From an uncultured Gammaproteobacteria bacterium (lineage in GTDB: Bacteria > Patescibacteriota > Patescibacteriia > Magasanikbacterales > UBA922): a stretch of DNA of 64,000 nt. Position numbers and translations under genes: made by a program. The DNA lies in assembly GCA_964345045.1 (NCBI GenBank), contig CAYFPM010000002.1, forward strand, positions 36,286 to 100,285, given 5' to 3'. Positions 30,996 through 55,033 of this stretch are shown here, one piece after another. The notes under the pieces were generated by a model. That model made no database searches. It had not been told where the DNA came from and saw only the letters and a list, made by a program, of their open reading frames with translations. The stretch's first letter is position 1, and each line of letters starts with the position of its first letter.

Positions 30996-31016
30996 ACGTA
31001 TAAAAAATCAAAAAAA

Positions 31017-31119: not shown

Positions 31120-32016
31120 TCAGCGTCCAATAAATTCCTCTTCATCAAACACATCAAAAGTTGGACTAACTACCACACTACTTACATTTATAGTGCCACC
31201 AAAATAACGCAAATCAATATTTCTTTTTTCACCTGCCAAAAATTGATCCACCACCAAATTTATAACTCCCATTCTTTGGTTGCCACTAAATAACTCTACC
31301 AAAAAAGTCGGTTCCCAATAGCTGTAGGCCGAATCATTGTAAAAATCAAACTGCACACTAGGCACTAGTGGCCCCTCGTTCAAACCGGGTGCACTAAAGT
31401 TAAAATTCTCTACCGAAAATATAATTCTTTCGTTCATAAAACCAGCTACATCGGCAATCTCATGAGCATCGACTCTCTTCCAAGTCACGTCTTCTATTTC
31501 GAACCTGGCGTTGGTAGGAAAAGAACCCAAATCTCTACCCAAAATTGCTACCGGACGTTTTGATGCCGGCATAATTATGGTTTCTACAGTTTCGGTACGA
31601 CTATTTCCAAACACAAAATAATAACGCAAAGTAGCCACCCAATCTTCGTTTATATTGTTTATATCAGCCACAAAGTCATACTTACTGGCCGAACTTTGGT
31701 ATACGCTTATTCTTTCTACTTGCAAATCTTTGGCTCCGTATAATTCGTGCAATGGAACAAAGTTGGTAACTTGTTCTAGTTGTGAACGATGCAATTGCAA
31801 GTCTTGATTGTAACCCACAAACAAATAATGCCCCCACATAAACAAACTAAAACCAACCGTAACTATACACCAAACAACCAAAATTCCTTTACCCATATTG
31901 GCCAATTGCAATTTGTGTTTTAGATACCATTCCCCCATTCTAAGTTTGCGATTGCTAAATTCACCGGTCGGATCTTTGTATGCTTTTAATTTGTCTGGTG
32001 GCTTCTGAAAAATCAT
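31120..32016 (-). CDS. hypothetical membrane-anchored protein
   Basis: 298 aa with one TM helix near the N-terminus. Confidence 0.5.
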   Translation of the reverse strand: MIFQKPPDKLKAYKDPTGEFSNRKLRMGEWYLKHKLQLANMGKGILVVWCIVTVGFSLFMWGHYLFVGYNQDLQLHRSQLEQVTNFVPLHELYGAKDLQVERISVYQSSASKYDFVADINNINEDWVATLRYYFVFGNSRTETVETIIMPASKRPVAILGRDLGSFPTNARFEIEDVTWKRVDAHEIADVAGFMNERIIFSVENFNFSAPGLNEGPLVPSVQFDFYNDSAYSYWEPTFLVELFSGNQRMGVINLVVDQFLAGEKRNIDLRYFGGTINVSSVVVSPTFDVFDEEEFIGR

Positions 32017-32032
32017 AACTTTGTAAGCAAGG

Positions 32033-32108
32033 TAAGTAATAAGCAGATTAAGCAGAGTAAAAATTATTTATGTTACTTACTCTGTCTATTCTGCTTAATC
32101 TGCTTATC
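32033..32108. repeat. AAGCAGATTA(G/A)GCAG palindromic repeat, copy 1
   Basis: taataagcagattaagcagagtaa...ttactctg..ctgcttaatctgcttat inverted arms. Confidence 0.65.
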
Positions 32109-32281
32109 TAATGCTACAATTATACACCAAAAATAAGCCTAATTACACCCCTTGTTTTATATATAGAAAAATGATAAAATCTAGAAGAAATAAAAAGCAT
32201 GAAATCATTAATCTCGACTCCAGTCAGGACTTAGCCTCTCAGCTTAGAGCAAAAAACAAATTGTAAATTACATCTACATAA

Positions 32282-34441
<2,160 letters not shown>

Positions 34442-34458
34442 AAAACTCAACAAACAAA

Positions 34459-34488
34459 AAATCTCTCAAAATTTGAGAGATTTTTTAT
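34459..34488 (+). terminator. intrinsic terminator after gyrB
   Basis: atctctcaaa-at-ttgagagatttttt. Confidence 0.7.
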
Positions 34489-34573
34489 TTTCCACTAATT
34501 TCAAATTTTGAAATCACTGGAATGAGAGAGACTGGCGACATGCCCCCGTTGGCGTAGTCTCGCAAACGCTCTG

Positions 34574-35179
34574 CTAGGTATAACAGAGCAGACGATCATT
34601 CTCTGCCGTATCTGAGTTGACACAAACTATTGCCCTCTTGGGTCTTAGTTCTTTGAGAGAAAGATTCAACCCCTCTTTTCCAGAAAGATCCACCGGATAC
34701 CTATAGGAAGACCAGGGGTGTTCCAATGGCAAGCACATCCTATGCTTGGCGTAGTTCCACCAGTCCGGAATTTTCAGCTCCAGACACTCCGAACCTATCA
34801 AAGAGGCCAAAGCGTGCCACGGATAGTCCAGAATCATGTACGGAAAAGCCGGCTCGATCTCGAAATAAGCTTCGAAGGGATCGACACCAGACAGATCTTG
34901 AAGACTCTGGGGTTTGTTCGTAGGCTCGAGCGGACTCCTCGTGACCGAGACCTTGAACTCGAAGTGGTAGTTGACCACGGCTCGAGTACTCGGCTGGTCG
35001 GCCTGGCAAGTGCAGACGGAGGAGTCCAGGCTCTGGCTTTCTACCGACTGGGGTGGTAGCCCCAGGGACAAGGCAAAAGAGAGCAAGGCGACAGCCAAGG
35101 CGAATAGGGACAAAGTTCCCCAGATCCTCTCCTGGCTATTCGGGCAAGAAGATTGCAAATTGTATTGTGACATTGTCAC
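34574..35179 (-). CDS. hypothetical secreted protein on a GC-rich island
   Basis: GC about 55%; hydrophobic N-terminal segment; probable ATG at 35173 with SD aggagg 6 nt upstream (the ORF track uses GTG at 35179). Confidence 0.55.
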   Translation of the reverse strand: MTMSQYNLQSSCPNSQERIWGTLSLFALAVALLSFALSLGLPPQSVESQSLDSSVCTCQADQPSTRAVVNYHFEFKVSVTRSPLEPTNKPQSLQDLSGVDPFEAYFEIEPAFPYMILDYPWHALASLIGSECLELKIPDWWNYAKHRMCLPLEHPWSSYRYPVDLSGKEGLNLSLKELRPKRAIVCVNSDTAENDRLLCYT

Positions 35180-35213
35180 CTCCTACTTATCAGTTTATCC
35201 ACTCTTGGCAAAC

Positions 35214-35242
35214 TTGACAAGTGGCTCAAATTAGGCTATATT
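35214..35242 (+). promoter_or_regulatory. sigma70 promoter upstream of secE-nusG
   Basis: TTGACA, a 17-nt spacer, then TATATT. Confidence 0.55.
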
Positions 35243-35367
35243 AAGCCTATCATCAATTTCGGCCAAAAGGCCGTTTTAAAATACTTTTTTGTTTGCAAAG
35301 GCTAACAAAGCTGGCAAGGCCTTGTAAGCCTTCTAGGCCTCCTAAGCCTTGCAAGCCTCTAACGCAT

Positions 35368-35562
35368 ATGAACAAAGCTCTAAAAGCTGCCCAAGACTAT
35401 TTCAAAGGATCTATCTCTGAAATGAAAAAAGTCGTTTGGCCTAGCAAAAGACAAACTCAAATCTATACTCTAATCGTAATCGCCATGAGTATTGGCGTAG
35501 CCGTATTTTTTGGAGTACTCGATTATATTTTCAATATTGCCCTAGAGCAAGTAATTAAATAA
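35368..35562 (+). CDS. secE: preprotein translocase subunit SecE
   Basis: Motif SEMKKVVWPSKRQTQIYTLIVIAMSIGVAVFFGVLDY, immediately upstream of nusG; the ORF-track start at 35293 would add a Pro/Lys-rich N-terminal extension. Confidence 0.7.
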   Translation: MNKALKAAQDYFKGSISEMKKVVWPSKRQTQIYTLIVIAMSIGVAVFFGVLDYIFNIALEQVIK

Positions 35563-35585
35563 AATTTGGATTACACATAATTTTT

Positions 35586-36131
35586 ATGGCCAAGCAAACA
35601 TTAAAATTAGGTCGTCGCTGGTATGTACTACATACCTACAGTGGCTACGAAGAAAACGTAAAACACAATTTAGAACAACGTATCGAATCTTTTGATATGC
35701 AAGACAAAATTTTTAGTGTCTTGGTACCAAAGGAAAAAAAGATTAAAATCAAAAATGGTAAACGCCAAGTAATCGAAGAAAAAATCTTCCCAGGTTATGT
35801 AATGGTTGAAATGAATGTAACCGATGATTCTTGGTATGTAGTAAGAAACACCCCAAACGTAACTGGTTTTATTGGTTCTGGGACAACTCCTACTCCTATT
35901 GATCCCAAAGAAATGGAAAACTTACAAAAACGTATGGGTGTGGCCGATCCAACCCACACTATTGACGTAGCTGTAGAAGATCCAGTTCGTATTGTCGATG
36001 GACCATTTAAGAATTTTGAAGGAAAAGTAAGCGCTGTAGACGAAGGTCGTGGCAAGATCAAAGTACTAGTAAGTATGTTTGGCCGCGAAACTCCAATCGA
36101 ACTAGATGCTCTTCAAGTGAAAAAAATCTAA
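35586..36131 (+). CDS. nusG: transcription termination/antitermination factor NusG
   Basis: NGN and KOW domains (WYVLHTYSGYE, IFPGYVMVEM). Confidence 0.9.
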   Translation: MAKQTLKLGRRWYVLHTYSGYEENVKHNLEQRIESFDMQDKIFSVLVPKEKKIKIKNGKRQVIEEKIFPGYVMVEMNVTDDSWYVVRNTPNVTGFIGSGTTPTPIDPKEMENLQKRMGVADPTHTIDVAVEDPVRIVDGPFKNFEGKVSAVDEGRGKIKVLVSMFGRETPIELDALQVKKI

Positions 36132-36236
36132 AAAGGCCGGAGAGGCCTAAGATGCTAAAAAGGCTTGAAAGATCAACTTTCAGCTTCTAGCTTTTCCGGC
36201 ATCTCTAGCTTCTCAAGCTTTTTATATATAATATAT

Positions 36237-36662
36237 ATGTCTAAAAAACTATTAACTCAAATCAAACTTCAAATCATGGGTGGGGCAGCCAATCCGGCTC
36301 CTCCAGTTGGTCCGGCTCTGGGTCAACATGGTCTAAACATCCAAGATTTTTGTACTCAGTTCAACAACGCTACTGCCGACAAAAAAGGCGAAGTGGTGCC
36401 GGTAGTAATCAATGTTTACGAAGATCGTAGCTTTGACTTTATTACCAAAGTTGCCCCAGCTAGCGCTCTTATTAAGAAAGCGGCTGGTCTAAAAAGTGGT
36501 TCTGGCAATCCACTCAAGGACAAAGTTGGCAAAATCACCCAAGCCCAACTTCGTGAAATTGCCGAAAAGAAAATGCCAGACCTAAACGCCAACGATGTAG
36601 AAGCCGCTATGAAAATTATAGCCGGTACTGCCAGACAAATGGGCGTACAAGTAGAAGAATAA
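36237..36662 (+). CDS. rplK: 50S ribosomal protein L11
   Basis: [32 protein letters not shown]...; the ORF-track start at 36165 is an artefactual extension. Confidence 0.9.
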
Positions 36663-36680
36663 AAATCTATACACACAAAA

Positions 36681-36709
36681 ATCAACCCGAAAGGGTTGAT
36701 TTTTATTTT
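36681..36709. terminator. bidirectional intrinsic terminator after rplK
   Basis: aaaaatcaaccc-gaaa-gggttgatttttatttt. Confidence 0.75.
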
Positions 36710-36714
36710 GAAAT

Positions 36715-37005
36715 ATGTTTGTATTGTAAATGCTGAGGCAGCCAGATATTGCTCAATGGGCTTGGGATGCAAGCCTTAGTGTGGGACCGCGCTTCTAGTC
36801 CGAGCGCCTTAGACGCTGCACCTTATCTACGCAAGTAAGATAAGGGAGTTCTGCATAACATCCCCGGAGTTGGTGCGGGCGACTTCGTTAGAGGGTTCTT
36901 CTGCCGGAGGCAGTTGTAAACCGAGTTTCGTACTCATATACTCAAACCAAAAATCATATTGGAGCTAAATCTTCGTATGAACCCGCACTCGATTCATATC
37001 CAAAA
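36715..37005. ncRNA. candidate structured ncRNA (unidentified family)
   Basis: About 290 nt at roughly 50% GC in a 38% background; no ORF of 60 aa or more; bounded by two bidirectional terminators; multiple local hairpins (ggcttg/caagcc, ccttatct/agataagg, ctgcc/ggcag). Confidence 0.4.
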
Positions 37006-37029
37006 ACCAGCCAACAGGCTGGTTTTTAC
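37005..37029. terminator. bidirectional intrinsic terminator
   Basis: aaaaaccagcc-aaca-ggctggttttt. Confidence 0.75.
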
Positions 37030-37086
37030 TTTCCAGCTTGTTGGTGCTAAAATAGATACATAATTCATTAATCATTAATTAAAAAT

Positions 37087-37512
37087 ATGAACCAAGATAA
37101 AAAAAATATTATTAGAAATATCTATCTTTATCTAGTAACTTTGATCGGGTTAATTATGGTGGTTATTCCAGCAGTAGACCTAATCAAGATTACCCTAGAG
37201 TCTACCCTATTCCCCCTAGCTGCCGAAGATGAGTACTACGATCGCGGCCCAGAACCATACATGCTAAAAACAAACATAGATCCAAATAGCACCGAACCAG
37301 TTACAACAGTTACTCTAAACGAATCCGACCAACAGCTATTTGAAAACTGGAAAGAAAATTATAGACGATGGGAAGAACGTGAAAATGATACCGAAAAAAG
37401 AATGGCCATAAGAAGACAAAGAGCCTTGGTAAGAGATATCTCTACTCTAATTGTTGGTCTGGCACTATTCCTTTCACACGGTTCTATTATTCGCAAAAAA
37501 CACAAAAAATAA
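37087..37512 (+). CDS. hypothetical membrane-anchored protein
   Basis: 141 aa with an N-terminal TM helix and a basic C-terminus. Confidence 0.5.
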   Translation: MNQDKKNIIRNIYLYLVTLIGLIMVVIPAVDLIKITLESTLFPLAAEDEYYDRGPEPYMLKTNIDPNSTEPVTTVTLNESDQQLFENWKENYRRWEERENDTEKRMAIRRQRALVRDISTLIVGLALFLSHGSIIRKKHKK

Positions 37513-37521
37513 GTCAAACCA

Positions 37522-37549
37522 AAATCCGAGATAAACTCTCGGATTTTTT
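37522..37549 (+). terminator. intrinsic terminator
   Basis: aaatccgag-ataaact-ctcggatttttt. Confidence 0.7.
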
Positions 37550-37566
37550 AATACACAATCCTGAAC

Positions 37567-37660
37567 CTGTCATTGCGAGGGAACGATAGCGACCGTCGCA
37601 ATCTCTAATACTTTCGTGTGAGATTGCCACGCTCGGCTTTGGCCGAGCTCGCAATGACAG
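37567..37660. repeat. GTCAT-family four-segment palindromic element (gtcattgcgag variant)
   Basis: ctgtcattgcgag...cgcaatctc / gagattgc...ctcgcaatgacag; local hairpins or long-range pairing are both possible. Confidence 0.65.
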
Positions 37661-37727
37661 CATAACTAATGACAGTAGAATAAATTAATTCGTGTTATAA
37701 TATGATCATAAAAATAACAACATAATT

Positions 37728-38648
37728 ATGAAAAATAGAAACTATCACAAAATCGCCATAATCGGAGCCGGCAATGTAGGCTCGGCAGCAGCCTATGCCA
37801 TGGATATCAAGCAAGTAGCCGCTGAAATAGTTTTGATTGATAGAAACGAAAAAAAAGAAGAAGGAGAAGTAATGGACATTGCCGATGGGCTTTGTTTTGT
37901 AGAAACAGGTTGTGTAAAAGGATCGGATTTTCGTGATGCAGCGAGTGCAGACATAATCGTAATAACTGCTGGAGCCAGGCAAAAACCCGGAGAAACCAGA
38001 CTGGATCTAGTAGAAAAAAACAAAAGTATAATGACCTCTATATTCAAAAAAGTTGGCAAAGTAAACAAAAATGCCAAAATTTTGGTAATCTCCAATCCGG
38101 TAGATGTGCTAACTCAACATATCCAAAAAATAACCAAACTCCCGGCCAATCAAGTCTTTGGCAGTGGAACTTGCCTAGACACAGCCAGACTACACACTGC
38201 TTTGGCCGACAAATTCCAGGTTAGCGCCCAAGATGTATCTGGATTTGTAATGGGAGAACATGGAGACAGTGAATTTGTGGCTTGGAGTACAGTTTCTATC
38301 GGTGGCGTACCCATAACAAAGGTAAAAGGTTTTAACAAAAGAATTGCCAACAAAATTGAAAAAGATGTTCGCAAAGAAGCTTACGAAATAATTAATCGCA
38401 AAGGGGCAACTTACTATGGCATTGGCCTAGTTATTGCCGACATTGCCGAAGCTATTTTGTACAATCAACAAAAAATATTGCCGGTTACTTCTGTACTAAA
38501 CAAATGGAATGGATTGAGTGGTGTGGCTCTGGGTGTACCGAGTATAGTAGGTGCAGATGGTATCAAAGATTATTGGCCAATTCCGTTATCCAAAGAAGAA
38601 AAAAAGAAGTTGCAAGCTTCTGCCAAAGTGATTAGGGAGTATTTGTAG
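37728..38648 (+). CDS. ldh: L-lactate dehydrogenase (LDH/MDH family; Gln at the substrate-specificity position)
   Basis: Motifs IIGAGNVGS, GARQKPGETRLDL and GEHGDSE. Confidence 0.8.
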   Translation: MKNRNYHKIAIIGAGNVGSAAAYAMDIKQVAAEIVLIDRNEKKEEGEVMDIADGLCFVETGCVKGSDFRDAASADIIVITAGARQKPGETRLDLVEKNKSIMTSIFKKVGKVNKNAKILVISNPVDVLTQHIQKITKLPANQVFGSGTCLDTARLHTALADKFQVSAQDVSGFVMGEHGDSEFVAWSTVSIGGVPITKVKGFNKRIANKIEKDVRKEAYEIINRKGATYYGIGLVIADIAEAILYNQQKILPVTSVLNKWNGLSGVALGVPSIVGADGIKDYWPIPLSKEEKKKLQASAKVIREYL

Positions 38649-38689
38649 GTTGGTTAAATATTTGTATATGAAAAATAAAAAATGACCAC

Positions 38690-38712
38690 GATGGTCATTT
38701 TTACTTTGTATA
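38690..38712 (+). terminator. intrinsic terminator after ldh
   Basis: aatgacc-acgat-ggtcatttttac. Confidence 0.6.
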
Positions 38713-38895
38713 TTTTTAGTACCTCTTACAACACTGTGTATCTGGCTCAATTAACAAGTAATTTCATTTACATTTTATTATATTGATTATCTTTTTCTGA
38801 AAGAATATTTGGCTCATCAATAACCAAAAGGAATCTGTGTGGAACCGTCGCTCCAACTCCACACAGATGGTGGTAGAAGCGACGGTTCCTGTCCG

Positions 38896-39228
38896 TCAGT
38901 TCAAGATGCCCGAAACTCCGAATTTCGCCACCCAGAAGTAGATGGTCTTCCCCCACCACGAGTGGGGTTCGAGCGGATTGACGTTGTAGATGCCTCCAGG
39001 CTGTGGAGACAGCTCAAGAAGAGTGCCATCGTGGAACGTCGTCACTCGATCGACGATACCCACGATCAGGTCCCAGAAACGAACCGGAACTCTCAAACTC
39101 TTACAGACCATCTCATGGTCAATCTTCGGAAGGTTGACCCGACGCACGGCGTGAGCCAAACTGCTGGGGTTGAGGGGTCGGCCACTATCGTCAAGAATGG
39201 AACGTCTGTACCAATCTGATTGCATCAA
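38896..39228 (-). CDS. hypothetical protein on a GC-rich island
   Basis: GC about 55% across 38830-39290; probable ATG at 39225 with SD ggagg 8 nt upstream. Confidence 0.5.
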   Translation of the reverse strand: MMQSDWYRRSILDDSGRPLNPSSLAHAVRRVNLPKIDHEMVCKSLRVPVRFWDLIVGIVDRVTTFHDGTLLELSPQPGGIYNVNPLEPHSWWGKTIYFWVAKFGVSGILN

Positions 39229-39570
39229 GATCTCCTCCGAGGTTATGCCGGCTGGTGAACTCCAGACGGACGTTTCACAATATCATAAAAATGGACATTT
39301 GTCAATGATTTAGTTAAAATTTTAGCTAATTTTAGCTCTTTTCTACCAAAAGATTTAAAATTAATGTCTATCGTTGTTTGGATGTTGAAGTTTCTAGTTT
39401 TGGAAAAACAAAAAAAAGAGGCTTTAACCTTATATTTCGAAAACAAAGAGCCGAACTTCGCATACACCGAAACGTTGTGATGGAATCACTCACCCTACTC
39501 TATTGAGAGCAATTAAAAAAATCAATCAAAAAACCCCTCTTTCTCGAGGAGTTTTTTAATTTATCTTTAT

Positions 39571-42500
39571 TTATTCATTCAAGAGAATATTCAATTCCTT
39601 CCTAGTATCTTTGTCGAGCGTCTTGGTTACTGGCAAGTCATTATCTTTTTGAAATCTTTCCAAAGCCTCTTCTAAAGTAGTCCCAAAGAAAGGAGTCGTT
39701 TCATAAAGGTAAAAATATTCCATTTCGTGCAAAACCTTTTTCAACTCACTAACATCCTGGTCTTCGTCTTGAAAATTAAGATCTTTTTTAAACGGTCCAA
39801 TATCAGCTTCTGTATAGTCCTCTCCTCCCGGATATTTGTCGAACAAAGTTTGATCCAAATAAATCAGATCATCATACTCATAACCAAGCTTGGAAAAAGT
39901 ATAATCTGTGTTGAATTTCCTCCAGCTAGAATCTTCGAATATATAAGAGTAGCTAGACTCTGGGAATCTTACAATTTCTCCTTCTCTTGGTACATAATTC
40001 TTACCAGGCAAAACTGGGCCAGCAGGATCTTCTGGAATTTGATCCAAGATCTCTTGTGCCTCTATTACCACATCGCCCAAAGAAGAAAAATGAGTAAAGA
40101 ATAAATCTTCATTTTCTACTAATCTTTTGGTACAATTTTCTGTTATTAAATATATTTGCCCAGGCAAGGCAGCGGCATATGGTTTGTCTGCTTCTAGTGG
40201 GCAAACTTCGTTATTTGTATTACCACCATCCAAATCTCTAGTTTCAAAAAACGGGAAAATTGATTTTATTCCAACGATTATAGAATCAAATATAGAGTCT
40301 TCTTCGTACAAAGAAGAAGTTCTGGCTGTGTTATCGCTTTTTCTCAATATCTCACTCAAATCTTCTATGTTCTCAATTTCTTGCTCTGTTAATTCTATAG
40401 ATACTTCTTCATCATAATAAATCCCACTAAAAAGTTTGAATCTAACATAAATTACTTTGTCACCAATCCCTTCCGACAAAACCCAAGGTAGCGAATCTTG
40501 ATAAGGGAAAACAAAGGCATTTTGAAAAGTAATATCTTCTGAAATCATAATTTCTTCAGCATTGTCTATAGCAAAACTCAACAAGACTTTTCTAGAATTA
40601 GTTTTTTCTTCGCCCCCATTTATGGTAACAGCCGACATAGCTACTCCGTTTTCTCCTATAGAGTACTGCACAGAAGAACCTCTCGATACTGCTCCCCCGC
40701 TAACCGAAACCGAATCAGATTCTGCACTAACCACAGCATCTTCTTCTACCGGTGGATAATAAACAATAGCAACGTCTTGGAAAACAGGACTAGATGTAGT
40801 GATCCCGTCTGTGGTTAAAGCTGCTTGATATTGAATATATCTATGTCCATCTGTTACACAACCATTGGCAGAGATATCGTCTCCACTAGCTACAGCAGTA
40901 CAAGAAGCAAAATCTGTAGCACCGCTCATATCACTACTATTATCTGTTCTAACTTTTACTGTGGTGCTAGCAGAGTTGCCAGTAGCTGTATAAGTAAGTG
41001 TCCCCCAAGTTTCGGCCTCTGTAGTATCGAATATTGCAGAAGTAAGAGTCGCCGAACTATTTACTCGAGATTCTACACTACCCACAGAATAAAAATTAGC
41101 TGGATCAGATTGGTTGTTGTATTCCGTTTCAATATACGTAGCGCTTAGAGTAGACGGAGCTAGACGGATTTCATCCAAAGTTCCATCAAATTGACGAACA
41201 GTATCATTGGGATGAGCACCAATTCTAATATCACAACCCGCATCCCCAATAAGCGAGCCAGCAGCAGTATCTCTTTTTAGATAACTACTTACGGCGACAC
41301 CATCTATATAAAATTTAGAATCTGTAGCTCCCAAACTATTGGCATAGGTAAATACAACATGGTGCCAAGATGTTTTGGGGGTAAAATCTGTATCGGAATT
41401 TACAGCTTCGGCATCCGAAGTAGTGTATTCTCTACCCCACATAAAAACCGGATTAGCTGTAGCTGGTTGGCTATCCCAGGCCAAGTAAACATCGCCTGTA
41501 TCGTCGTATTGAATCTCCCAACCACCGCTATTACAACTTCCCAAATATTTGGTAATAAGCCTACCACCATATTGATCAGATCCAGGAGTAGCGTCTCCTT
41601 TTATCCAAAAACTTACCGACATATCGGTCAAGTCGTCTATAGTAGAATCAGTAGCTACATCCAAAACCCTACCGGCGCTAGATGGGTTCTCCACAAATTG
41701 GATAGCGTTACCCAATTGTCCGCTAACAGAATGACTGCTAGAAAAATTAGCATTGGTTGCATTACCATGGTTACTATTGGCCGAATCACAAACTTCGAAA
41801 CCAGCACCACTACAACTACCGTCGGTGCTAATACTAGGGTCTTCTTCGAAGTGCCAAACAGCAGCATAAGCAGAACTCCATGTACTAGCATTATTTGATA
41901 CGTTTGCACTAGCATTACCATAATAAACATAAATATCTGTATCGGCAGCACTACTAACACTTGGCACATTGACCCAAGCTTGCATGGTGCTAGCGGTAGT
42001 GGATACAGATACAACTTCTCTATTTAGGACAGTTGTTCCATCCGAACTGGTGAAAACCAAATCCGTACCATTAGTATTTACATTAGAAAAAAAGTGAGAG
42101 TCAAAATTATCTTCGGTAACCAAAACTGGAAAATTGGATTGAGTAGAAGAAACTTGGGTAGAGTCTATAGTTATTTTTCTTCTATAGAGCCAAGCCGTGT
42201 CGTACCAACCAGTAGTGGTGGCAGCTTCGAATTGACCAGTAGTGGTGGTATAAGCTGTAGTGGCAGACTGGTATTGGTTGCTAGTATTTGTACCGACTCC
42301 ACTAGACCAATCGGTCTGGGTCCAGGTAGAACCGCTGGCATAAGCCAAAGAAACATTGCCCACCAAACCATAGCTAACAGCCAAGGTAAATGCCAAATAA
42401 GAAAAAGCTGTCAACGAAGTGAGCGCAATAGAGGTTTTGCGTCTTTTTCTGTATAGTTGATAAGAAAAACCTTCTTTATTAAATAGAGTTGGATCTATCT

Positions 42501-42675
42501 TGTAAGTTTTTTTGAAATAAAGAGGAAAAGAGACCAAATTAAGAACTAATTCATGAAAAGACATTTTCAAAAATTTTGGAATTCTAAAAACATGATCTTT
42601 GTGAGAAAGTTCTTTTTTTGAAGCAACTACATTGACAGAGTATTTGTCGATTAAACCTAACCATTTTTTCTTCAT
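39571..42675 (-). CDS. large membrane-anchored surface protein with DUF2341 + LamG (concanavalin A-like) + C-terminal peptidoglycan-binding domain, paralog 1
   Basis: N-terminal TM, then WYDTAWLYRRKITID...NFPVLV (DUF2341-like), then a LamG-like region (AVWHFEE...SFWIK...HHVVFTY...LDEIRL), then a PG_binding_1-like C-terminus; the start is set at M42 (MKKKWLGL) by alignment with the paralog; the ORF-track start at 42798 overlaps the next gene. Confidence 0.75.
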   Translation of the reverse strand: MKKKWLGLIDKYSVNVVASKKELSHKDHVFRIPKFLKMSFHELVLNLVSFPLYFKKTYKIDPTLFNKEGFSYQLYRKRRKTSIALTSLTAFSYLAFTLAVSYGLVGNVSLAYASGSTWTQTDWSSGVGTNTSNQYQSATTAYTTTTGQFEAATTTGWYDTAWLYRRKITIDSTQVSSTQSNFPVLVTEDNFDSHFFSNVNTNGTDLVFTSSDGTTVLNREVVSVSTTASTMQAWVNVPSVSSAADTDIYVYYGNASANVSNNASTWSSAYAAVWHFEEDPSISTDGSCSGAGFEVCDSANSNHGNATNANFSSSHSVSGQLGNAIQFVENPSSAGRVLDVATDSTIDDLTDMSVSFWIKGDATPGSDQYGGRLITKYLGSCNSGGWEIQYDDTGDVYLAWDSQPATANPVFMWGREYTTSDAEAVNSDTDFTPKTSWHHVVFTYANSLGATDSKFYIDGVAVSSYLKRDTAAGSLIGDAGCDIRIGAHPNDTVRQFDGTLDEIRLAPSTLSATYIETEYNNQSDPANFYSVGSVESRVNSSATLTSAIFDTTEAETWGTLTYTATGNSASTTVKVRTDNSSDMSGATDFASCTAVASGDDISANGCVTDGHRYIQYQAALTTDGITTSSPVFQDVAIVYYPPVEEDAVVSAESDSVSVSGGAVSRGSSVQYSIGENGVAMSAVTINGGEEKTNSRKVLLSFAIDNAEEIMISEDITFQNAFVFPYQDSLPWVLSEGIGDKVIYVRFKLFSGIYYDEEVSIELTEQEIENIEDLSEILRKSDNTARTSSLYEEDSIFDSIIVGIKSIFPFFETRDLDGGNTNNEVCPLEADKPYAAALPGQIYLITENCTKRLVENEDLFFTHFSSLGDVVIEAQEILDQIPEDPAGPVLPGKNYVPREGEIVRFPESSYSYIFEDSSWRKFNTDYTFSKLGYEYDDLIYLDQTLFDKYPGGEDYTEADIGPFKKDLNFQDEDQDVSELKKVLHEMEYFYLYETTPFFGTTLEEALERFQKDNDLPVTKTLDKDTRKELNILLNE

Positions 42676-42745
42676 ATGGTTTTTGGCTATTATAATATGA
42701 TTTCTAAATTTATTATACATAATTGATAAAAACGTAGAAATATAA

Positions 42746-43267
42746 TTATTTCTCCATTTTTTTGACAGTGATTTTTGCCAGTTCAGCCTTCCAGCCAATT
42801 AGATTGGCCAACAATTGAACAAAGGATGATACACCTGCTATGGCCAAAACCAACCAAAAATACCAGGTAATTGGTAATAGATAATATAGAGCCACGGTAA
42901 AAACAGATATCCATACCCCTACACACCACGGACAACCCAAGAGATCGGCGAAAAGTCTTCTTAGTCCTTTTTTAGGTTTTGATCTATATGTATAAACTAT
43001 TCCTTTTTCTTTTTTTTCTGATTTTACCAAAAACATATCCCTAATAAACTGGGACACTTGATCGTATACCAATAACCTAGTTAATCTAAAAGCAGCAAAA
43101 ACCAAAATAGTAAACTCCCAGATTGTTATATCGTTAAGATCTTTTATTGAAAAATTTGTATAAAAAGATAGCAAATAAGTAAAAAATATTACTAATGCAA
43201 AAAATATTATTGTGAGAAGAAAGCTTAAAAAAACTCCACTTCCCTTCTCCTTTTTTGTAACCTCCAT
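42746..43267 (-). CDS. DUF1360 family membrane protein
   Basis: 4 TM helices with an LLGCPWCVGVW motif. Confidence 0.65.
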   Translation of the reverse strand: MEVTKKEKGSGVFLSFLLTIIFFALVIFFTYLLSFYTNFSIKDLNDITIWEFTILVFAAFRLTRLLVYDQVSQFIRDMFLVKSEKKEKGIVYTYRSKPKKGLRRLFADLLGCPWCVGVWISVFTVALYYLLPITWYFWLVLAIAGVSSFVQLLANLIGWKAELAKITVKKMEK

Positions 43268-43358
43268 AAGATGATTCTAAGTATAGAACAATTATAACAA
43301 ACTCTTGACAAATTAACCAGTTTAAGGTATAAATAGTCTGCATTATTCATCGGTGGAA

Positions 43359-43376
43359 CCCTACCCGTAAGTAGGG
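43359..43376 (+). promoter_or_regulatory. GC-rich hairpin in the rplA leader (possible L1 autoregulatory site)
   Basis: ccctac-ccgtaa-gtaggg, 25 nt upstream of the rplA start. Confidence 0.3.
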
Positions 43377-43400
43377 GCTCGTACCACTAAAAATATTCTT

Positions 43401-44078
43401 ATGAGTAAAAGAATAGAAGATCTAAAGGGTAAGATCGACAAAACCAGATCTTACGCCTTGGAAGAAGCATTGCAATTGGTAAAAGACACCAGCAATGTAA
43501 AATTTGATGCTTCTGTAGAAGCACACGTTAGACTAGGGATCGACCCTAAAAAGGGTGATCAACAAATCCGCGCTACTGTGGTATTGCCACACGGAACTGG
43601 TAAAACCAAAAAAGTAGCGGCCTTTGTAGGCGCCAACGACGAAGCTGCCGCCAAAGCTGGTGGAGCAGACTTTGTATACGGAGAAGAAGAAATAAAAAAG
43701 ATTAAAGATACGGGTAAAATAGAATTTGATGTAGCCGTAGCTAGCCCGGAAATGATGCCAAAATTGGCTGTAGCTGCCAAGATCTTAGGTCCCAAAGGAC
43801 TTATGCCAAATCCAAAGACCGATACAGTTGGTCCAGATGTGAAAAAAATGGTAGAAGATCTTAAAAAGGGTAAAGCCGCTTTTAAAAATGATGATGGAGC
43901 CAACATCCACCAAAATATTGGTAAAGTAAGCTTTGACCTAAAACAACTAAAAGAAAACTTCAATGCTTTTGTAGAAGCTTTGCAAAAAGCCAAGCCAACT
44001 ACTAGCAAAGGTAGTTATATAAAAGCGGTTTACTTGACTAGCTCTATGGGGCCAAGTGTAAAAGTAGTATTGGAATAA
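43401..44078 (+). CDS. rplA: 50S ribosomal protein L1
   Basis: Region ...DPKKGDQQIRATVVLPHGTGK... Confidence 0.9.
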   Translation: MSKRIEDLKGKIDKTRSYALEEALQLVKDTSNVKFDASVEAHVRLGIDPKKGDQQIRATVVLPHGTGKTKKVAAFVGANDEAAAKAGGADFVYGEEEIKKIKDTGKIEFDVAVASPEMMPKLAVAAKILGPKGLMPNPKTDTVGPDVKKMVEDLKKGKAAFKNDDGANIHQNIGKVSFDLKQLKENFNAFVEALQKAKPTTSKGSYIKAVYLTSSMGPSVKVVLE

Positions 44079-44093
44079 ACAAATAGAAAACCA

Positions 44094-44121
44094 AAAAACC
44101 AGTCAATTGACTGGTTTTTTT
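44094..44121. terminator. bidirectional terminator between rplA and LamG paralog 2
   Basis: aaaaaaccagtc-aatt-gactggttttttt. Confidence 0.75.
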
Positions 44122-44133
44122 ATTTAAATGAAA

Positions 44134-47085
44134 TTAGCTATTTAAAATGGTATTCAGCAGTGCTCTGGTAGCTCTATCCAAATTTCCTGTTTCTTGCAAT
44201 TTGTTTTTTCTTTGGAATCTTTTTAGAGCATCTTCTAGATTGGTACTAAAAAATGGGGTGGTTTCATATTGTTGAAAATGACCTTGTTTGTGAAGTAAAG
44301 CTTTTAGGTCGACTACATCTTGGTGAGAATCTTGAAATTTTAAATTCTTTAGATAAGGTCCTATGTCCGCCTCGGTGTAAGTTTCGCCAACGACATATTT
44401 ACCAAATACGCTCTTGTCTATCAACAAAATACTATTGTAACTATGTCCAAGCTGACGAAGGGTAAACTGAGAATTAAAACTTCTCCATTTGTTGTCTTCC
44501 AATATATATATATTAGAATCATCCGAAACTTTTGCCAAAACTCCTTCTTCTAATTCTATTTCTGGGTTAAGTGTCATCGGTCCGGCTGTATCCAAGTTGA
44601 TTTGATCTAACTCTGCTTGGGTAACAAATTGGACAGCTCCCAAAGAAAGATTATAACTATCAAAAGAATATTTATCTAAAAACGGTCTCTTGGTACATTC
44701 TGGCGTGATGAAAAATAGAGTGGCATCTACATAAGAGCGATGAACTTCTCCAATAGTCGCAGGGCAAACAAAATCATCTGCATAGGCTCCTCCTCCATTT
44801 GAATTTGCACCTGTAGAAGTATCCCCCTCATCTCCATTTGGGATCACATTCATAGCGCCTTCTTCAAATACCAAGGTCTTTTCTACATCATAATAAAAAC
44901 CATTATATAATTTGAATCTTACATACAAATTCTTTTCACCATAACCTTCGGAAAGTGTCCATTCCATTTCTTCTGCAAAAGGAATAAACTTGGCATTGGC
45001 AAAAGTAATATCTTCGGAAATGGCTACAGATTCTACATCTCGTAAACCATACTTCAACAAGACTTTATTTTCATCACTTTCTATTTTTTCAATTGTGACA
45101 GCTTCTAATGGAATTCCATCTTTGCCTACACTTCTGGAAACAGAAGTACTAGCCCCAGCTCCCCCAGCTACACTACCAGTATTGGAAGTGGTACTAGAAG
45201 CCGAAGGCACGGTATAAGCAATAGAAATATCCTGAAAAACCGGAGAAGAGGTAGTGATACTATCTGTAGTAAGAGTAACTTCGTATTGTACATATCTATC
45301 CCCATCGGTTACACAACCATTGCCAGAGATATCTGTCCCCGAAGTAATAGTGGTACAAGAACCAAAAGCTGTTGCTCCACTCATATCACTACTACTATCT
45401 GTTCTTACTTTTACAGTAGTACTGGCAGAGTTCCCAGTAGCAGTGTAGGTCAAATTACCCCAACTTTGGGCATTGGTGGTATCAAAAATGGCAGAAGTTA
45501 ATACTGCTGTGCTGGTAACAGCGTATTCCAAAGCAGAGACAGAATAAAAAGTCGAAGGACTATTTTGATTGTTGTATTCGGTTTCTACATACTGTGGAGT
45601 AACTACACTGGTAGCAAGACGAAGTTCGTCCAAACCACCATGAAAAGGTCTATCGTCCCCACCACGAGCACCAATATACAAATCACAAGCAGCATCACTC
45701 ACATGTGCACCAGCACCAGCCACATTTGATGGGTAATAAGCAGCTTCCACACCATTTATAAAAAATCTACCACTGGTACCTGTGTAATTATCATCCCAAG
45801 TAAATACCACATGTTGCCAAGCATCTTCTGTAACAGTTAGGTTATCGGTAATAAAGAACGAATCAGTAGTTGCATTATCTTTGTCCCACACCAATACCTG
45901 ATCGTACCCACTTGGCTGACTGCTACCATCCCAAACATTTCCGTTGTTATCATACAAAAGTTCCCAACCTTCTAAACAAACTTTCTCAAAAATAGTATGG
46001 TTATTGTCCGAAGAAAAGGCACTATCCGGGTTCATCCAAAAAGAAACCGAATAATCACCTAGATCGTCTATGCTACTACCACTAAAGGCTTTTAATCTTT
46101 TGCTTGTACCAAATCTATAACCAGTACCAAAAGGAGAACTAGTCGCATAAGAGGCATCGAAACCAGTAGATGTAGCATGGTTGGCATTTCCAGCCGAATC
46201 ACAAGTAGAATATATTCCTCCACCACAGGCACCATCGGTAGTAGCAGTCGGGTCTTCGTCCAAATGCCAAACTGCAGCATAGGTGGAACTCCAAACTGTA
46301 GTATCGTCAGTTTGAGCGTCTCCAGTATCACTATTACCAAAATACATATAAATATCTGTATCGGCGTCGTCTGGCAAAGAACTAATTCTTACCCAAGCCT
46401 CGAATTGAGAAGTGCTAGAGTTGAAAGCTACAATTTCTCTGGGTAAGAGAGTTCCACTACTATCTGTAAATAGAATGTCTGCTCCGGTATTTTGGATAAC
46501 ATTGTTAAAAAAGTCGGCTCCAAGATTATCTTCTGTAATAAGCACTGGAAAATTGGACAGTGTAGAAGAAACTTGATTTTGGTCTATAGTAATTTTTTGT
46601 CTGTAGCCCCAAGCTGTGTTATACCAACCTGTAGTAGTGGCCGCTTCGAATTGTCCGGTAGTGGTAGTATAAGCAAAACTAACAGATTCGTACTGATTGC
46701 CAGTATCTATCCCTACTCCACCAGACCAATCGGTCTGGGTCCAAGAAGTACTAGTAGCCAAGGCTGTAGACAAATTGGAAAATAAACTAAAACCTAAACT
46801 GATTGCCAGGTAAGAAAATACTAATAACGAGCTAACCCCGAATGAAAGTCGACGTTTTCTATAATGATGAAACGAAAAACCTTCATTATTAAAAATCTTA
46901 TGGTCTAATCTATGGGTTCGCCTTATATAAAGAGGGACAGACAAAAAACCGATCGCAATTTCGTGTACCAAAATATTTAGTAAGTGTAAAAAAGCCAAAA
47001 TAGGGTGTTTATCCTTTAACCCCTTTTTGACCAAATCCACTCTACTAGATAAAAAGTGGAGTAATTTAAGCCATTTATTATTCAT
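44134..47085 (-). CDS. large DUF2341 + LamG + peptidoglycan-binding membrane protein, paralog 2
   Basis: 983 aa, collinear with the protein at 39571..42675 (for example GQFEAATTTGWYNTAWGYRQKITID, SATAFGSCT, a C-terminal PG-binding-like domain). Confidence 0.75.
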   Translation of the reverse strand: MNNKWLKLLHFLSSRVDLVKKGLKDKHPILAFLHLLNILVHEIAIGFLSVPLYIRRTHRLDHKIFNNEGFSFHHYRKRRLSFGVSSLLVFSYLAISLGFSLFSNLSTALATSTSWTQTDWSGGVGIDTGNQYESVSFAYTTTTGQFEAATTTGWYNTAWGYRQKITIDQNQVSSTLSNFPVLITEDNLGADFFNNVIQNTGADILFTDSSGTLLPREIVAFNSSTSQFEAWVRISSLPDDADTDIYMYFGNSDTGDAQTDDTTVWSSTYAAVWHLDEDPTATTDGACGGGIYSTCDSAGNANHATSTGFDASYATSSPFGTGYRFGTSKRLKAFSGSSIDDLGDYSVSFWMNPDSAFSSDNNHTIFEKVCLEGWELLYDNNGNVWDGSSQPSGYDQVLVWDKDNATTDSFFITDNLTVTEDAWQHVVFTWDDNYTGTSGRFFINGVEAAYYPSNVAGAGAHVSDAACDLYIGARGGDDRPFHGGLDELRLATSVVTPQYVETEYNNQNSPSTFYSVSALEYAVTSTAVLTSAIFDTTNAQSWGNLTYTATGNSASTTVKVRTDSSSDMSGATAFGSCTTITSGTDISGNGCVTDGDRYVQYEVTLTTDSITTSSPVFQDISIAYTVPSASSTTSNTGSVAGGAGASTSVSRSVGKDGIPLEAVTIEKIESDENKVLLKYGLRDVESVAISEDITFANAKFIPFAEEMEWTLSEGYGEKNLYVRFKLYNGFYYDVEKTLVFEEGAMNVIPNGDEGDTSTGANSNGGGAYADDFVCPATIGEVHRSYVDATLFFITPECTKRPFLDKYSFDSYNLSLGAVQFVTQAELDQINLDTAGPMTLNPEIELEEGVLAKVSDDSNIYILEDNKWRSFNSQFTLRQLGHSYNSILLIDKSVFGKYVVGETYTEADIGPYLKNLKFQDSHQDVVDLKALLHKQGHFQQYETTPFFSTNLEDALKRFQRKNKLQETGNLDRATRALLNTILNS

Positions 47086-47189: not shown

Positions 47190-47660
47190 ATGTCAGAAAG
47201 ACCAAGTTGGGATAAATATTTTATGGATATCGCTAGTGTAGTTGGCACTAGATCTACTTGTGATAGAGGCAAAACAGGAGCCGTGCTAGCCAGAAATAAT
47301 CATATCTTGGTAACTGGCTATGCTGGTGCTCCCAGAGGACTACCCCACTGCGATGACATTGGCCACCAACTAAAAACTGTTCGTCACGAAGATGGAAGAG
47401 AAACCGAGCACTGCTTGCGAACTGCCCATGCCGAACAAAATGCTCTAATCCAAGCCGCTAGAATTGGGGTACCTGTAGAAGGAGCTACAGTCTATTGTAG
47501 TATGACCCCCTGTGCCGCCTGTGCCAAAATGCTTATAAACGCCGGGGTAAAAAGAATAGTATGTGCCAAACGCTACCACGCCGGAGAAGAATCAGAAGAA
47601 ATGTTTAGACAAGTTGGCGTAGAATTAAAATTTTTTGATGACGGGGTGGAGACCTATTAG
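47190..47660 (+). CDS. dCMP deaminase
   Basis: Motifs HAEQNAL and PCAACAKM; start at MSERPSW. Confidence 0.85.
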   Translation: MSERPSWDKYFMDIASVVGTRSTCDRGKTGAVLARNNHILVTGYAGAPRGLPHCDDIGHQLKTVRHEDGRETEHCLRTAHAEQNALIQAARIGVPVEGATVYCSMTPCAACAKMLINAGVKRIVCAKRYHAGEESEEMFRQVGVELKFFDDGVETY

Positions 47661-49861: not shown

Positions 49862-50215
49862 ATGAAAACATATAAAGATCTTGATGTGTGGAAAAAGTCC
49901 ATAGAACTAGTTATAGAACTGTATAGGATTACAAAACTATTGCCCATTGAAGAAAAGTTTGGGCTGGTATCACAAATGCGGCGTTGTACTGTATCGATCC
50001 CCTCAAACATTGCAGAAGGTTATGCTAGAAAAAATAGAAAAGAAAACGCCCAATTTGTAAATATTGCATTCGGTTCTGGTACAGAATTGGAAACCCAAAT
50101 AATTATTGTAAAAAAGTTAAATCTAATAAAACAAGAAGAATTTACAAAAGCAGATCAATTATTGGACAGTGTATTACGAATGCTTTATAGGTATCGTGAA
50201 TCACTTTACCAATAA
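49862..50215 (+). CDS. four-helix-bundle protein (23S rRNA intervening-sequence protein family)
   Basis: Motifs DLDVWKKS...SIPSNIAEGYAR; strong SD aggggg; flanked by roughly 25-30 bp inverted repeats. Confidence 0.8.
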   Translation: MKTYKDLDVWKKSIELVIELYRITKLLPIEEKFGLVSQMRRCTVSIPSNIAEGYARKNRKENAQFVNIAFGSGTELETQIIIVKKLNLIKQEEFTKADQLLDSVLRMLYRYRESLYQ

Positions 50216-54084: not shown

Positions 54085-54121
54085 TGTATAAAATAGCAGT
54101 CAAAAACCTTGAGGAGGTCCG

Positions 54122-55033
54122 ATGACACACATAATTTTGACCGTAGTCGGGTACCTTGGCCTAAACCTAGCGATATGGTTGTCGCTGGGTGAAGGTGGCC
54201 TGGTCATGATCGCTTTTAGCAACATGCTGGGGGCACTAATCACTTTCATCCGCTTCCGAACGGAGGTGGATTCTCAGCAAAGAGAAATCAAGTGGCTGCC
54301 AGCCCTTAGTGGCTCGCTCGGTATTTTGCTCATAGTGTACGGGCTGCGTTCTTCGCACGCCCACCTGCCAGTAAGCCTATCGATAGAGGCAGTCTACAAC
54401 ACCTTTGCTACCCTAACCTGGCCAATGTTTGTGTTCTTGCACTGGGTGGCTCCAAAGCACTTTTCCGATCGACCCAATACCCTCGATATCTTCTGCCACG
54501 TGCTTATGTTCGGCATGGTAGTCCTAAGGTTTGCAACCTACAGCGGGTTCGAACCTTCCGAAAACATCTGGGTGGTTTTTATCCCAGTGTGTGGCTACAT
54601 GCTGTTCAACATCAGTATCAAGCTGTCGGGTGGGCACCGCATGACCAACATTGCAATGAACATCGGTGGTGGTGTCCTGTTACTCCTAATGGCCGGCAAG
54701 ACTGGCGAGCTAAGAGCCTCGAGCTTTACGCCTCAGTACGTAGCCGCCCTCACAATAGGTGCACTTAGCATCTACACGGTGGTGAGTCGCCTAGGAGCAA
54801 GCTACAAGCACTTCATCGGTCGAGGACAAGCCTCTCTGGTCGCCCCGCTGGTCTACGACGGTATCCTAGTGGCATCTCCAGCTATTATGTATTTCACCGA
54901 CGAAGCCCAACACTTCACCCGGTGGACAATTGTAGTGGCTCTTGGCATGCTGGTCATAACGGCGATTCGCTATTTTGGCCACCAGCGTAGTCTAGTAAGC
55001 AGCGCCGCAGCCAAACCTCAAGAAGAGACATAA
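54122..55033 (+). CDS. hypothetical polytopic membrane protein on a GC-rich island
   Basis: GC about 55%; SD gaggagg 5 nt upstream; about 8 TM helices. Confidence 0.55.
   Translation: MTHIILTVVGYLGLNLAIWLSLGEGGLVMIAFSNMLGALITFIRFRTEVDSQQREIKWLPALSGSLGILLIVYGLRSSHAHLPVSLSIEAVYNTFATLTWPMFVFLHWVAPKHFSDRPNTLDIFCHVLMFGMVVLRFATYSGFEPSENIWVVFIPVCGYMLFNISIKLSGGHRMTNIAMNIGGGVLLLLMAGKTGELRASSFTPQYVAALTIGALSIYTVVSRLGASYKHFIGRGQASLVAPLVYDGILVASPAIMYFTDEAQHFTRWTIVVALGMLVITAIRYFGHQRSLVSSAAAKPQEET

Follow-up and report, generated by a model that had tools for sequence, protein, structure and literature searches.

Introduction

Large surface proteins built on a DUF2341 β-sandwich and a LamG (concanavalin A-like) jelly roll number in the hundreds in the candidate phyla radiation (CPR) and in DPANN and Asgard archaea, where they carry the NCBI names 'DUF2341 domain-containing protein' or 'LamG-like jellyroll fold domain-containing protein'. 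In the literature, CPR and DPANN proteins with LamG/concanavalin or DUF2341 domains have already been viewed as putative attachment factors. Most family members start in a short signal or anchor segment and later continue into fn3, Big, PKD, CarboxypepD_reg, Calx-beta or peptidase modules. Here, a window of 64 000 nucleotides (the whole stretch of contig CAYFPM010000002.1 that was analysed) was found to encode two paralogous proteins of this kind, giant1 and giant2, on either side of rplA, the gene for ribosomal protein L1. The giants have the N-terminal cassette of the large surface proteins (25–60% identity) and the same presumed role in surface attachment, whereas they differ from the family in an extra N-terminal module of ~85 residues and in a C-terminus composed of a module termed B2 and a PG_binding_1 domain. 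We consider it fairly probable that the giants are non-enzymatic, surface-displayed, wall-associated proteins that act as lectin adhesins or as membrane-to-wall tethers, and rplA is, from its sequence context, best read as an autonomous, probably autoregulated cistron.

Three further systems are close enough for comparison. Channel subunits of the MotA/TolQ/ExbB type with a fused DUF2341 (PMC12505986) have the DUF2341 β-sandwich in common with the giants, whereas the giants are stand-alone ectodomain proteins; no MotA/TolQ/ExbB domain was found in the giants, among the Pfam-scanned open reading frames (ORFs) of the window or among the neighbours of the relatives' genes. The first-pass annotation of this DNA was right that such channel genes are absent from these ORFs, but the partner that it expected is not typical of the cassette, which in most cases heads, at the N-terminus, a large secreted or anchored protein that stands alone. 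The non-covalently wall-bound adhesins and 'periscope'-type proteins of Gram-positive bacteria (for example Aap/SasG, with a legume-lectin-like domain; PMC9999234) are similar in their lectin head, immunoglobulin (Ig)/FN3-like spacers, wall-binding C-terminus and lack of an enzymatic domain. The giants differ in having no LPXTG/sortase signal and no long repeat stalk, in wall binding through PG_binding_1 and in an N-terminus that may be membrane-anchored; there is no sequence homology, and the likeness is one of analogy, not of family membership. For rplA itself, Fu et al. 2013 (PMC3616713) describe an L1-interacting RNA, a short stem with an internal G–A bulge, which they place 'directly preceding rplA' in members of the Cyanobacteria, Actinobacteria, Chloroflexi and Firmicutes.

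Arrangement of the giants around rplA

The central part of the locus contains the following features.

39524–39561, minus strand: terminator-like hairpin directly 3′ of the giant1 stop codon
39571–42675, minus strand: giant1, 1034 residues (P0003); N-terminal membrane module, DUF2341, LamG-homologous region, modules A, B1 and B2, PG_binding_1
42746–43267, minus strand: DUF1360 membrane protein, 173 residues, 70 bp 5′ of giant1; Pfam DUF1360, 6.4e-26
43401–44078, plus strand: rplA (L1), 225 residues; Pfam Ribosomal_L1, 3e-56
44093–44120: palindromic hairpin, terminator-like in both directions, where rplA and giant2 converge
44134–47085, minus strand: giant2, 983 residues, complete gene, identical to database protein P0001

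As the first-pass annotation had proposed, two giant paralogs surround a monocistronic-looking rplA, with ORFs at these coordinates and domain calls that pass the Pfam thresholds; its placement of the second paralog on the opposite strand holds relative to rplA, but the two giants both lie on the minus strand. The identities that it gave to rplA, rplK, nusG, ldh and the DUF1360 gene are likewise supported by Pfam, and the DUF1360 protein belongs to its family with 90.8 bits against a gathering cut-off of 21. The mechanical ORF of giant1 (39571–42798, minus strand) starts at a TTG codon (42798), whereas the most likely start is the ATG at 42675, which yields 1034 residues; this product is identical to P0003 and aligns with residue 1 of giant2. 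An extended −10-like sequence, TGTATAAT, is situated 5′ of the giant1 start codon, and each giant has its own −10-like element near its start codon.

Aligned over their full length by BLASTP (845 bits), giant1 and giant2 have 45% identity, and there is no third paralog in the window. At the nucleotide level the pair forms direct repeats that enclose rplA, with blocks of ~280 nt and 76% identity at a distance of 4.4 kb. Template/variable repeats like those of diversity-generating retroelements were considered around the giants and rejected, as only these paralog-derived direct repeats were seen.

A second, independent assembly in ENA (L084) matches the window with 100% identity over positions 29571–45332 (15.7 kb, from gyrB to the first 1.2 kb of giant2), and the gene arrangement is therefore not the artefact of a single assembly. 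Repeat-induced misjoining of the paralogs during assembly or binning could be suspected in that giant2 is where the ENA contig stops, and repeats are a frequent place for assemblies to break off; however, besides the identity of the second assembly, the order gyrB–secE–nusG–rplK…rplA…dCMP deaminase–dut–thyA agrees with that of the closest relatives, and the paralogs are merely ~45% identical at the protein level. We regard such an artefact as scarcely credible. The best matches of L1 are 73–76% identical and belong to several metagenome-assembled genomes of Candidatus Magasanikbacteria, with more distant matches in Uhr-, Falkow-, Kuenen- and Moranbacteria; by sequence, the source organism is assigned to Candidatus Magasanikbacteria (Patescibacteria/CPR).

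Domain architecture and predicted structure of the giants

The AlphaFold2 model of giant2, with a mean predicted local distance difference test score (pLDDT) of 80.7, comprises seven modules.

46756–47085, minus strand: residues 1–110, N-terminal module (helices 3–23 and 28–54, FNxEGxSYxxYRxRR loop, transmembrane helix 72–100)
46261–46752, minus strand: residues 112–275, WTQTDWSGG strand and DUF2341 β-sandwich (Pfam and model)
45541–46248, minus strand: residues 280–515, LamG/concanavalin A-like jelly roll (Pfam and model)
45202–45528, minus strand: residues 520–628, module A, β-sandwich
44851–45138, minus strand: residues 650–745, module B1, Ig/FN3-like β-sandwich, a many-fold repeat in other proteins
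44341–44763, minus strand: residues 775–915, module B2, two β-β-β-α-β-α repeats with a conserved Cys pair
44137–44328, minus strand: residues 920–983, PG_binding_1 three-helix bundle (Pfam 1.4e-10 and model)

The architecture proposed in the first-pass annotation, namely an N-terminal segment, a single clear transmembrane helix, DUF2341, LamG, β-rich modules and a PG_binding_1 tail, is borne out by these results, with one qualification concerning LamG. DUF2341 (PF10102) is called above its cut-off of 23.4 bits in giant1 (3.8e-9, 37.3 bits) and in giant2 (1.2e-7, 32.5 bits). PG_binding_1 (PF01471) is likewise called in giant1 (1.9e-8, 34.8 bits) and giant2 (41.7 bits) against a cut-off of 23, and in the giant2 model it forms a bundle of the helices 922–933, 950–960 and 971–982. 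Laminin_G_3 (PF13385) is found in giant2 with 5.6e-17 and 62.7 bits (cut-off 27.6), and the fold agrees, whereas giant1 has no Pfam call for this family at E ≤ 0.1; residues 339–575 of giant1 are colinear with the giant2 LamG in the protein alignment, and the LamG assignment of giant1 is made by homology to giant2 only.

The LamG region is modelled with pLDDT mostly of 80–97, and its Foldseek neighbours in the PDB (domain 4 of AbnA, the Hc regions of tetanus and botulinum neurotoxins and the lectin domain of trans-sialidase, with E values of 1e-8 to 1e-6) are solely lectin or carbohydrate-binding-module (CBM)-type concanavalin A-like domains. Hundreds of large proteins have module A next to LamG, on its C-terminal side. 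Module B2, with the consensus C...VYYIT..CTKRPF...PKVYLL...WI.SE.VF..LGY.W.WIEDV, has no Pfam family and no PDB relative, and the N-terminal module has no match in either database; for both, Pfam at E ≤ 10 and PDB profile searches returned scattered single-member noise. The conserved Cys pairs are consistent with an extracytoplasmic location.

These data bear directly on whether the giants might be wall- or polysaccharide-degrading enzymes, that is, a concanavalin A-like 'glucanase' or a lytic B2 targeted by PG_binding_1 that would remodel the cell's own wall or breach that of a host. PG_binding_1 is a common targeting domain of lytic enzymes (SleB, amidases and CtpB among them), to which the giants have weak matches through PG_binding_1 alone, and B2 is without an assigned function. 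However, the family Laminin_G_3 is non-catalytic, the fold neighbours are lectin and CBM domains and not GH16-type glucanases, no hydrolase family or fold was found anywhere in the protein and, more generally, no enzymatic domain was detected anywhere in the giants by Pfam and NCBIfam. A degradative function is thus judged very unlikely.

Subfamily distribution and genomic contexts

An exhaustive HMMER search, in which the C-terminal half of giant2 was run against 1.84 billion clusters, gave 1131 representatives at E ≤ 1e-3. The matches are modular: in most of the proteins listed, module A stands after LamG; B1 serves elsewhere as a repeat unit; B2 is accompanied by CBM_4_9, by fn3 or by no other domain; and PG_binding_1 is common. 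The cassette of a hydrophobic helix, WTQTDWSGG, DUF2341, LamG and module A constitutes the N-terminus of many proteins of 800–2000 residues from Patescibacteria, from Asgard and DPANN archaea and from others. The N-terminal extension of ~85 residues, by comparison, was found in only seven representatives from this search (P0001, P0002, P0003, P0047, P0133, P0146 and P0184), all of which end in PG_binding_1 and in which K20, E42, P51, F65, N66, G69, Y75 and R78 of the extension are invariant. Calx-beta modules are added to the ectodomain in P0133, P0146 and P0047, and P0184 has fn3 instead of DUF2341–LamG. From these sequences the subfamily appears as one of conserved ends with a swappable middle, and the giants are old paralogs within a rare envelope-protein subfamily.

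The strength of this N-terminal conservation is the main argument for the giants being transmembrane sensors, in which the ectodomain would report the state of a host surface or wall to the cytoplasmic N-terminal module in a manner analogous to RsgI. RsgI-type anti-sigma factors carry extracellular carbohydrate-binding modules. A segment of ~80 residues in which eight residues are invariant over seven divergent proteins, and which is kept despite the ectodomain swap in P0184, is conserved beyond the needs of a plain membrane anchor. Against this, the module has no similarity to an anti-sigma, kinase or other signalling domain, and no sigma-factor or regulator gene stands beside any member, which makes a sensor role quite unlikely.

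The genomic contexts of the relatives are diverse. The giant2 ortholog P0002 (54% identical) is encoded between RNase Y and HU (L001), and P0192, P0133, P0047, P0146 and P0184 are found in five further unrelated contexts. In none of the six contexts examined (L001, L082, L083, L085, L086 and L087) was a DUF1360 gene, rplA, a MotA/ExbB gene or a type IV pilus (T4P) operon found nearby. The association with DUF1360 emphasized in the first-pass annotation did not survive this comparison: the gene pair recurs in none of these contexts, and DUF1360 is also absent from 28 Magasanikbacteria rplA loci. No giant homolog was found in the 80 rplA loci described below, and phmmer at E ≤ 10, run on the 28 loci from Magasanikbacteria, found none either. 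As judged from these sequences, the DUF1360–giant1 pair and giant2 are lineage-specific insertions at the two junctions flanking rplA. What had been described as an unusual combination is better viewed as common CPR surface-protein genes in a lineage-specific insertion at a site that varies from one member of the clade to another.

The contexts also bear on the idea that the giants are accessory or tip adhesins of a T4P-like system, comparable to archaeal DUF2341 proteins and to PilY1. Archaeal T4P loci do hold DUF2341 proteins (Makarova et al. 2016, PMC4858521), a DUF2341 gene of Methanococcus is among those that, with the epd pilus genes, score in a transformation screen, and annotation of the DUF2341 domain predicts a T4P-like component. 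Nevertheless, no pilin, ATPase or TadC-type gene was found near the giants or in the six other contexts, in which the single trace was a weak T4SS_pilin match in L083. The giants have no class III signal peptide, their N-terminus being a distinct conserved module followed by a transmembrane helix, and a C-terminal PG_binding_1 suits wall attachment better than a pilus tip. The combination that would mark an arCOG03508- or PilY1-like T4P adhesin, a T4P locus and/or a class III signal peptide, was found neither in this region of the window nor in the other contexts, and we consider a pilus role unlikely.

Proposed role of the giants

The reading that we favour, a lectin adhesin or membrane-to-wall tether, may be put together from the modules as follows. 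The N-terminus would be held in, or cleaved at, the cell's own membrane by a module that consists of an amphipathic or hydrophobic helix with an invariant Glu, a basic FNxEGxSYxxYRxRR loop and one clear transmembrane helix. The concanavalin A-like head is predicted to bind glycan, the β-sandwiches would serve as spacers (an Ig-like spacer beside the DUF2341–LamG–module A cassette), and B2 (~145 residues) together with PG_binding_1 is predicted to form a C-terminal wall-binding unit that grips the cell's own or a host's peptidoglycan. We infer the surface location and the adhesin or tether function from the sequences. The position beside rplA would be incidental, with rplA as an autonomous unit tied to the dCMP deaminase–kinase–dut–thyA cluster.

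Several points weigh against this proposal. A membrane-retained N-terminus places the lectin head close to the membrane, which is an odd geometry for an adhesin, and B2, being without a detectable relative of known function, may have a catalytic or other role. The topology could also differ: helix 28–54, which is hydrophobic in giant2 and in distant members and not in giant1, could be hydrophobic enough for a second transmembrane segment in the former, and the N-terminal module could be a long signal peptide that is cleaved, in view of the AxA-like sites that follow the transmembrane helix in three members of the subfamily and not in the other four. A broader possibility, which we regard as doubtful though worth retaining, is that the conserved ends define a previously undescribed Patescibacteria envelope scaffold that reaches from the membrane to peptidoglycan and displays interchangeable cassettes (DUF2341–LamG, Calx-beta or fn3), in which the N-terminal module, whose invariant Glu would lie within the membrane, may have a signalling or partner-docking function beyond that of an anchor and B2 would be a new wall- or host-binding family.

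The rplA leader

The short region upstream of rplA contains two elements, the first of which was read from the sequence.

43305–43333, plus strand: promoter-like site, TTGACA, 17 nt spacer, TATAAA
43353–43387, plus strand: L1-operator-like RNA, GUGGAA-CCCUAC-CCGUAA-GUAGGG-GCUCGUA-CCAC, ending 14 nt before the rplA AUG

The operator-like pattern has its single match in the window at this position, and similar TTGACA…TATAAA/T sites precede rplA in many Magasanikbacteria loci. A motif of GUGG(G/A)A, then a hairpin and a short run of residues, then ACCAC occurs directly 5′ of rplA in 70 of the 81 sources (80 loci and the window), whether or not rplK adjoins rplA. In an alignment of 40 sequences, with slid partner columns and 500 shuffles as controls, the outer helix (P1) is invariant and all six pairs of the hairpin (P2) have compensatory changes. 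Paired cells amount to 94%, compared with 42–49% with slid partner columns, and the covariation score is 0.57, compared with 0.15 in the shuffles, none of which (0/500) reaches the observed value. No Rfam model matched the leader (43250–43460) even at E ≤ 10.

The leader has the structural and positional features of an L1-interacting RNA, namely a short helix, an asymmetric internal loop and flanking pairs 5′ of rplA. It is similar to the RNA described in PMC3616713 (and in Nevskaya et al. 2005, cited there) in its short stem, in G–A followed by an unpaired residue and in conserved flanking G–C pairs, and its position directly 5′ of rplA is that found in Cyanobacteria, Actinobacteria, Chloroflexi and at the second Firmicute site. 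It differs from the RNAs of that survey in its occurrence in Patescibacteria, a group outside the survey, and in its persistence where rplK is kilobases away or out of the neighbourhood. By these features the leader matches a known regulatory class. The invariant GUGGGA…ACCAC also resembles the base of the L1 stalk of 23S rRNA (E. coli GGUGGGAG…AUACCACC). L1 binding and autoregulation through the leader are suggested by similarity and position. With its own promoter-like site, operator RNA and terminator-like hairpin, rplA would have the means by which its linkage to rplK could erode.

Linkage of rplK and rplA among relatives

The window has a gap of 6.7 kb between rplK and rplA. For comparison, 80 rplA loci with 10-kb flanks were taken from species-representative genomes and the window proteins were mapped onto each; adjacency was defined as an rplK–rplA gap of at most 600 bp, and the loci were split at 61% L1 identity to the window.

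L1 identity at least 61% (Magasanikbacteria), 36 loci: adjacent, 5; separated, 8 (1.0–2.9 kb); no rplK upstream, 22; rearranged, 1
L1 identity below 61%, 44 loci: adjacent, 36; separated, 5; no rplK upstream, 3; rearranged, 0

Among the 22 Magasanikbacteria loci without an upstream rplK, 18 have 3–10 kb or more of upstream sequence and four have less, too little to judge; of the three distant ones, one has at least 3 kb and two have less. The order gyrB–secE–nusG–rplK–gap–rplA is kept in L002, L003, L004, L008 and L026, with ldh, a D-2-hydroxyacid dehydrogenase, a DUF5671-like protein or a Kazal/DUF6970 secreted protein in the gap. Downstream of rplA, dCMP deaminase, a kinase, dut and thyA are conserved partners in most of the 80 loci.

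The first-pass annotation held that the giants break the rplK–rplA linkage. The survey points elsewhere, since the linkage is already broken or stretched in 31 of the 36 Magasanikbacteria loci, where only five have the two genes adjacent and no giant is nearby. The absence of rplJ and rplL, also claimed there, was reproduced: neither was found in the window or in the 80 loci by tblastn with E. coli L7/L12 and L10 queries, run without a positive control. The canonical secE–nusG–rplK–rplA–rplJ–rplL cluster is accordingly not present as such in the window. From the sequences sampled, loss of the rplK–rplA linkage is a property of the order, and absence of rplJ/rplL by the same search extends to the sampled ABY1 and Paceibacteria-type relatives; the giants caused neither.

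It might still be argued that the position is functional, the giants and rplA being co-regulated, or rplA guarding the duplication from recombinational loss by standing between direct-repeat paralogs. The direct repeats described above fit the latter, and the former could draw on the 133-bp divergent control region common to rplA and the DUF1360–giant1 unit. However, giant homologs are absent from the vicinity of rplA in the relatives, P0002 being flanked by RNase Y and HU instead; what surrounds rplA there is unrelated housekeeping genes (UvrA, UvrD, topoisomerase I, CorA and a MiaB-like protein on the upstream side, and also an acetyl-CoA synthetase); 76% nucleotide identity is low for homologous recombination; and the giant–rplA–giant bracket is so far limited to one lineage. 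A functional role of the position is thus highly improbable.

The surroundings of rplA were also considered as a hot spot for giant surface proteins, which was rejected, as most of the relatives' neighbours are housekeeping genes. Two other very large ORFs were seen within a few kb of rplA, both unrelated to the giants: one of 2006 residues in L005 (3151–9171), with a FliG_N match only, and one of 2022 residues in L023 (1153–7221), with Big_5 and CarboxypepD_reg repeats. Many Magasanikbacteria have one to three ORFs of ~340–370 residues 3′ of rplA, at the position of giant2 (L003 10701–12867 and equivalent positions in L004, L009, L015 and L022). The ORFs of L003 that were scanned encode a pyruvate-kinase barrel that lacks the usual C-terminal domain and a protein with a phosphoenolpyruvate (PEP)-utilizer mobile domain; ORFs of these two types are sometimes inserted 3′ of rplA in relatives. 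The gyrB ORF of L008 (4043–7429, 1128 residues) has its halves that match the window GyrB split by ~1.26 kb of in-frame, intein-like sequence.

Neighbouring genes and GC-rich islands

Further features upstream and downstream of the central part are as follows.

35293–35562, plus strand: secE; precomputed Pfam SecE on the identical ENA contig, kept 5′ of nusG in relatives
35586–36131, plus strand: nusG; Pfam NusG 7.3e-31, plus KOW
36237–36662, plus strand: rplK (L11), 141 residues, as on the ENA contig; Pfam Ribosomal_L11_N and Ribosomal_L11
36730–36990: GC-rich stretch 3′ of rplK between terminator-like hairpins (~36681–36712 and ~37003–37030); RNA fold z = −3.1
37087–37512, plus strand: DUF5671-like membrane protein, 141 residues; Pfam DUF5671 25 bits, sub-threshold (cut-off 28.4)
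37728–38648, plus strand: L-lactate/malate dehydrogenase (ldh); Pfam Ldh_1_N and Ldh_1_C
38801–39300: GC-rich island (~52–59% GC) with overlapping ORFs 38839–39219 (plus strand) and 38896–39228 (minus strand)
47190–47660, plus strand: dCMP deaminase, which opens the nucleotide-metabolism cluster 3′ of rplA across the clade

The start of rplK was set at the ATG that gives 141 residues, the mechanical ORF starting at TTG 36165. Homologs of the DUF5671-like protein are located between rplK and rplA in several relatives, as is ldh in L002 and L008, and in the window ldh is followed by a terminator-like hairpin. After giant2, the plus-strand cluster comprises dCMP deaminase, a P-loop kinase, dut, thyA and folA. 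Two small ORFs, at 49862–50215 and 21388–21753 (117 and 121 residues), appear by eye to be of one four-helix-bundle family, and one of the two is inside the thyA–folA nucleotide cluster.

Five islands of ~50–59% GC stand out in the window of ~38% GC (12581–13440, 34661–35220, 36721–36960, 38801–39300 and 54101–55080). They have no similarity to one another and are absent from the relatives' loci, and could be ORFans, foreign DNA or RNAs. The island before giant1, noted in the first-pass annotation as a GC-rich ORFan region and evident from the composition, has no Pfam, NCBIfam or Rfam match and resembles no other sequence of the window or of the loci. Pfam gave no match for the island ORFs that were scanned (12661–13458, 34574–35179 and the two overlapping ORFs listed above). 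Rfam, run on the whole window at the gathering threshold, which covers the other islands, returned tRNA-Asn only, and a permissive scan of 34400–39650 gave no convincing match in the islands there. The two palindromic, terminator-like hairpins downstream of rplK bound ~260 nt, which is possibly a small RNA; this stretch is not conserved in relatives and has no convincing Rfam match. A GC-rich segment with ORFan-like overlapping ORFs is also found 5′ of RNase Y on the contig of P0002 (L001 130–900); it resembles the islands of the window and has no sequence similarity to the island at 38780–39330.

Conclusion

In conclusion, LamG/DUF2341 surface proteins and L1 autoregulation are already known, and current views of them are not overturned by this analysis, in which the giant–rplA arrangement turns out to be mostly ordinary for the group. 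What is new is the architecture of a rare subfamily, with its N-terminal module, B2 and PG_binding_1 tail, and the record of a Magasanikbacteria rplA that is uncoupled from rplK yet retains its own operator. The orphan rplA is no anomaly: the L1 gene of this CPR order is equipped with a promoter-like site and an L1-operator RNA of its own, which is plausibly why a highly conserved ribosomal gene linkage dissolved in the order, and the class of L1-interacting RNA directly preceding rplA is now extended to Patescibacteria. The B2 and N-terminal modules are two unannotated domain families that are open to definition, and, if the adhesin or tether reading is true, the giants would be candidates for partner attachment or envelope cohesion in Magasanikbacteria.

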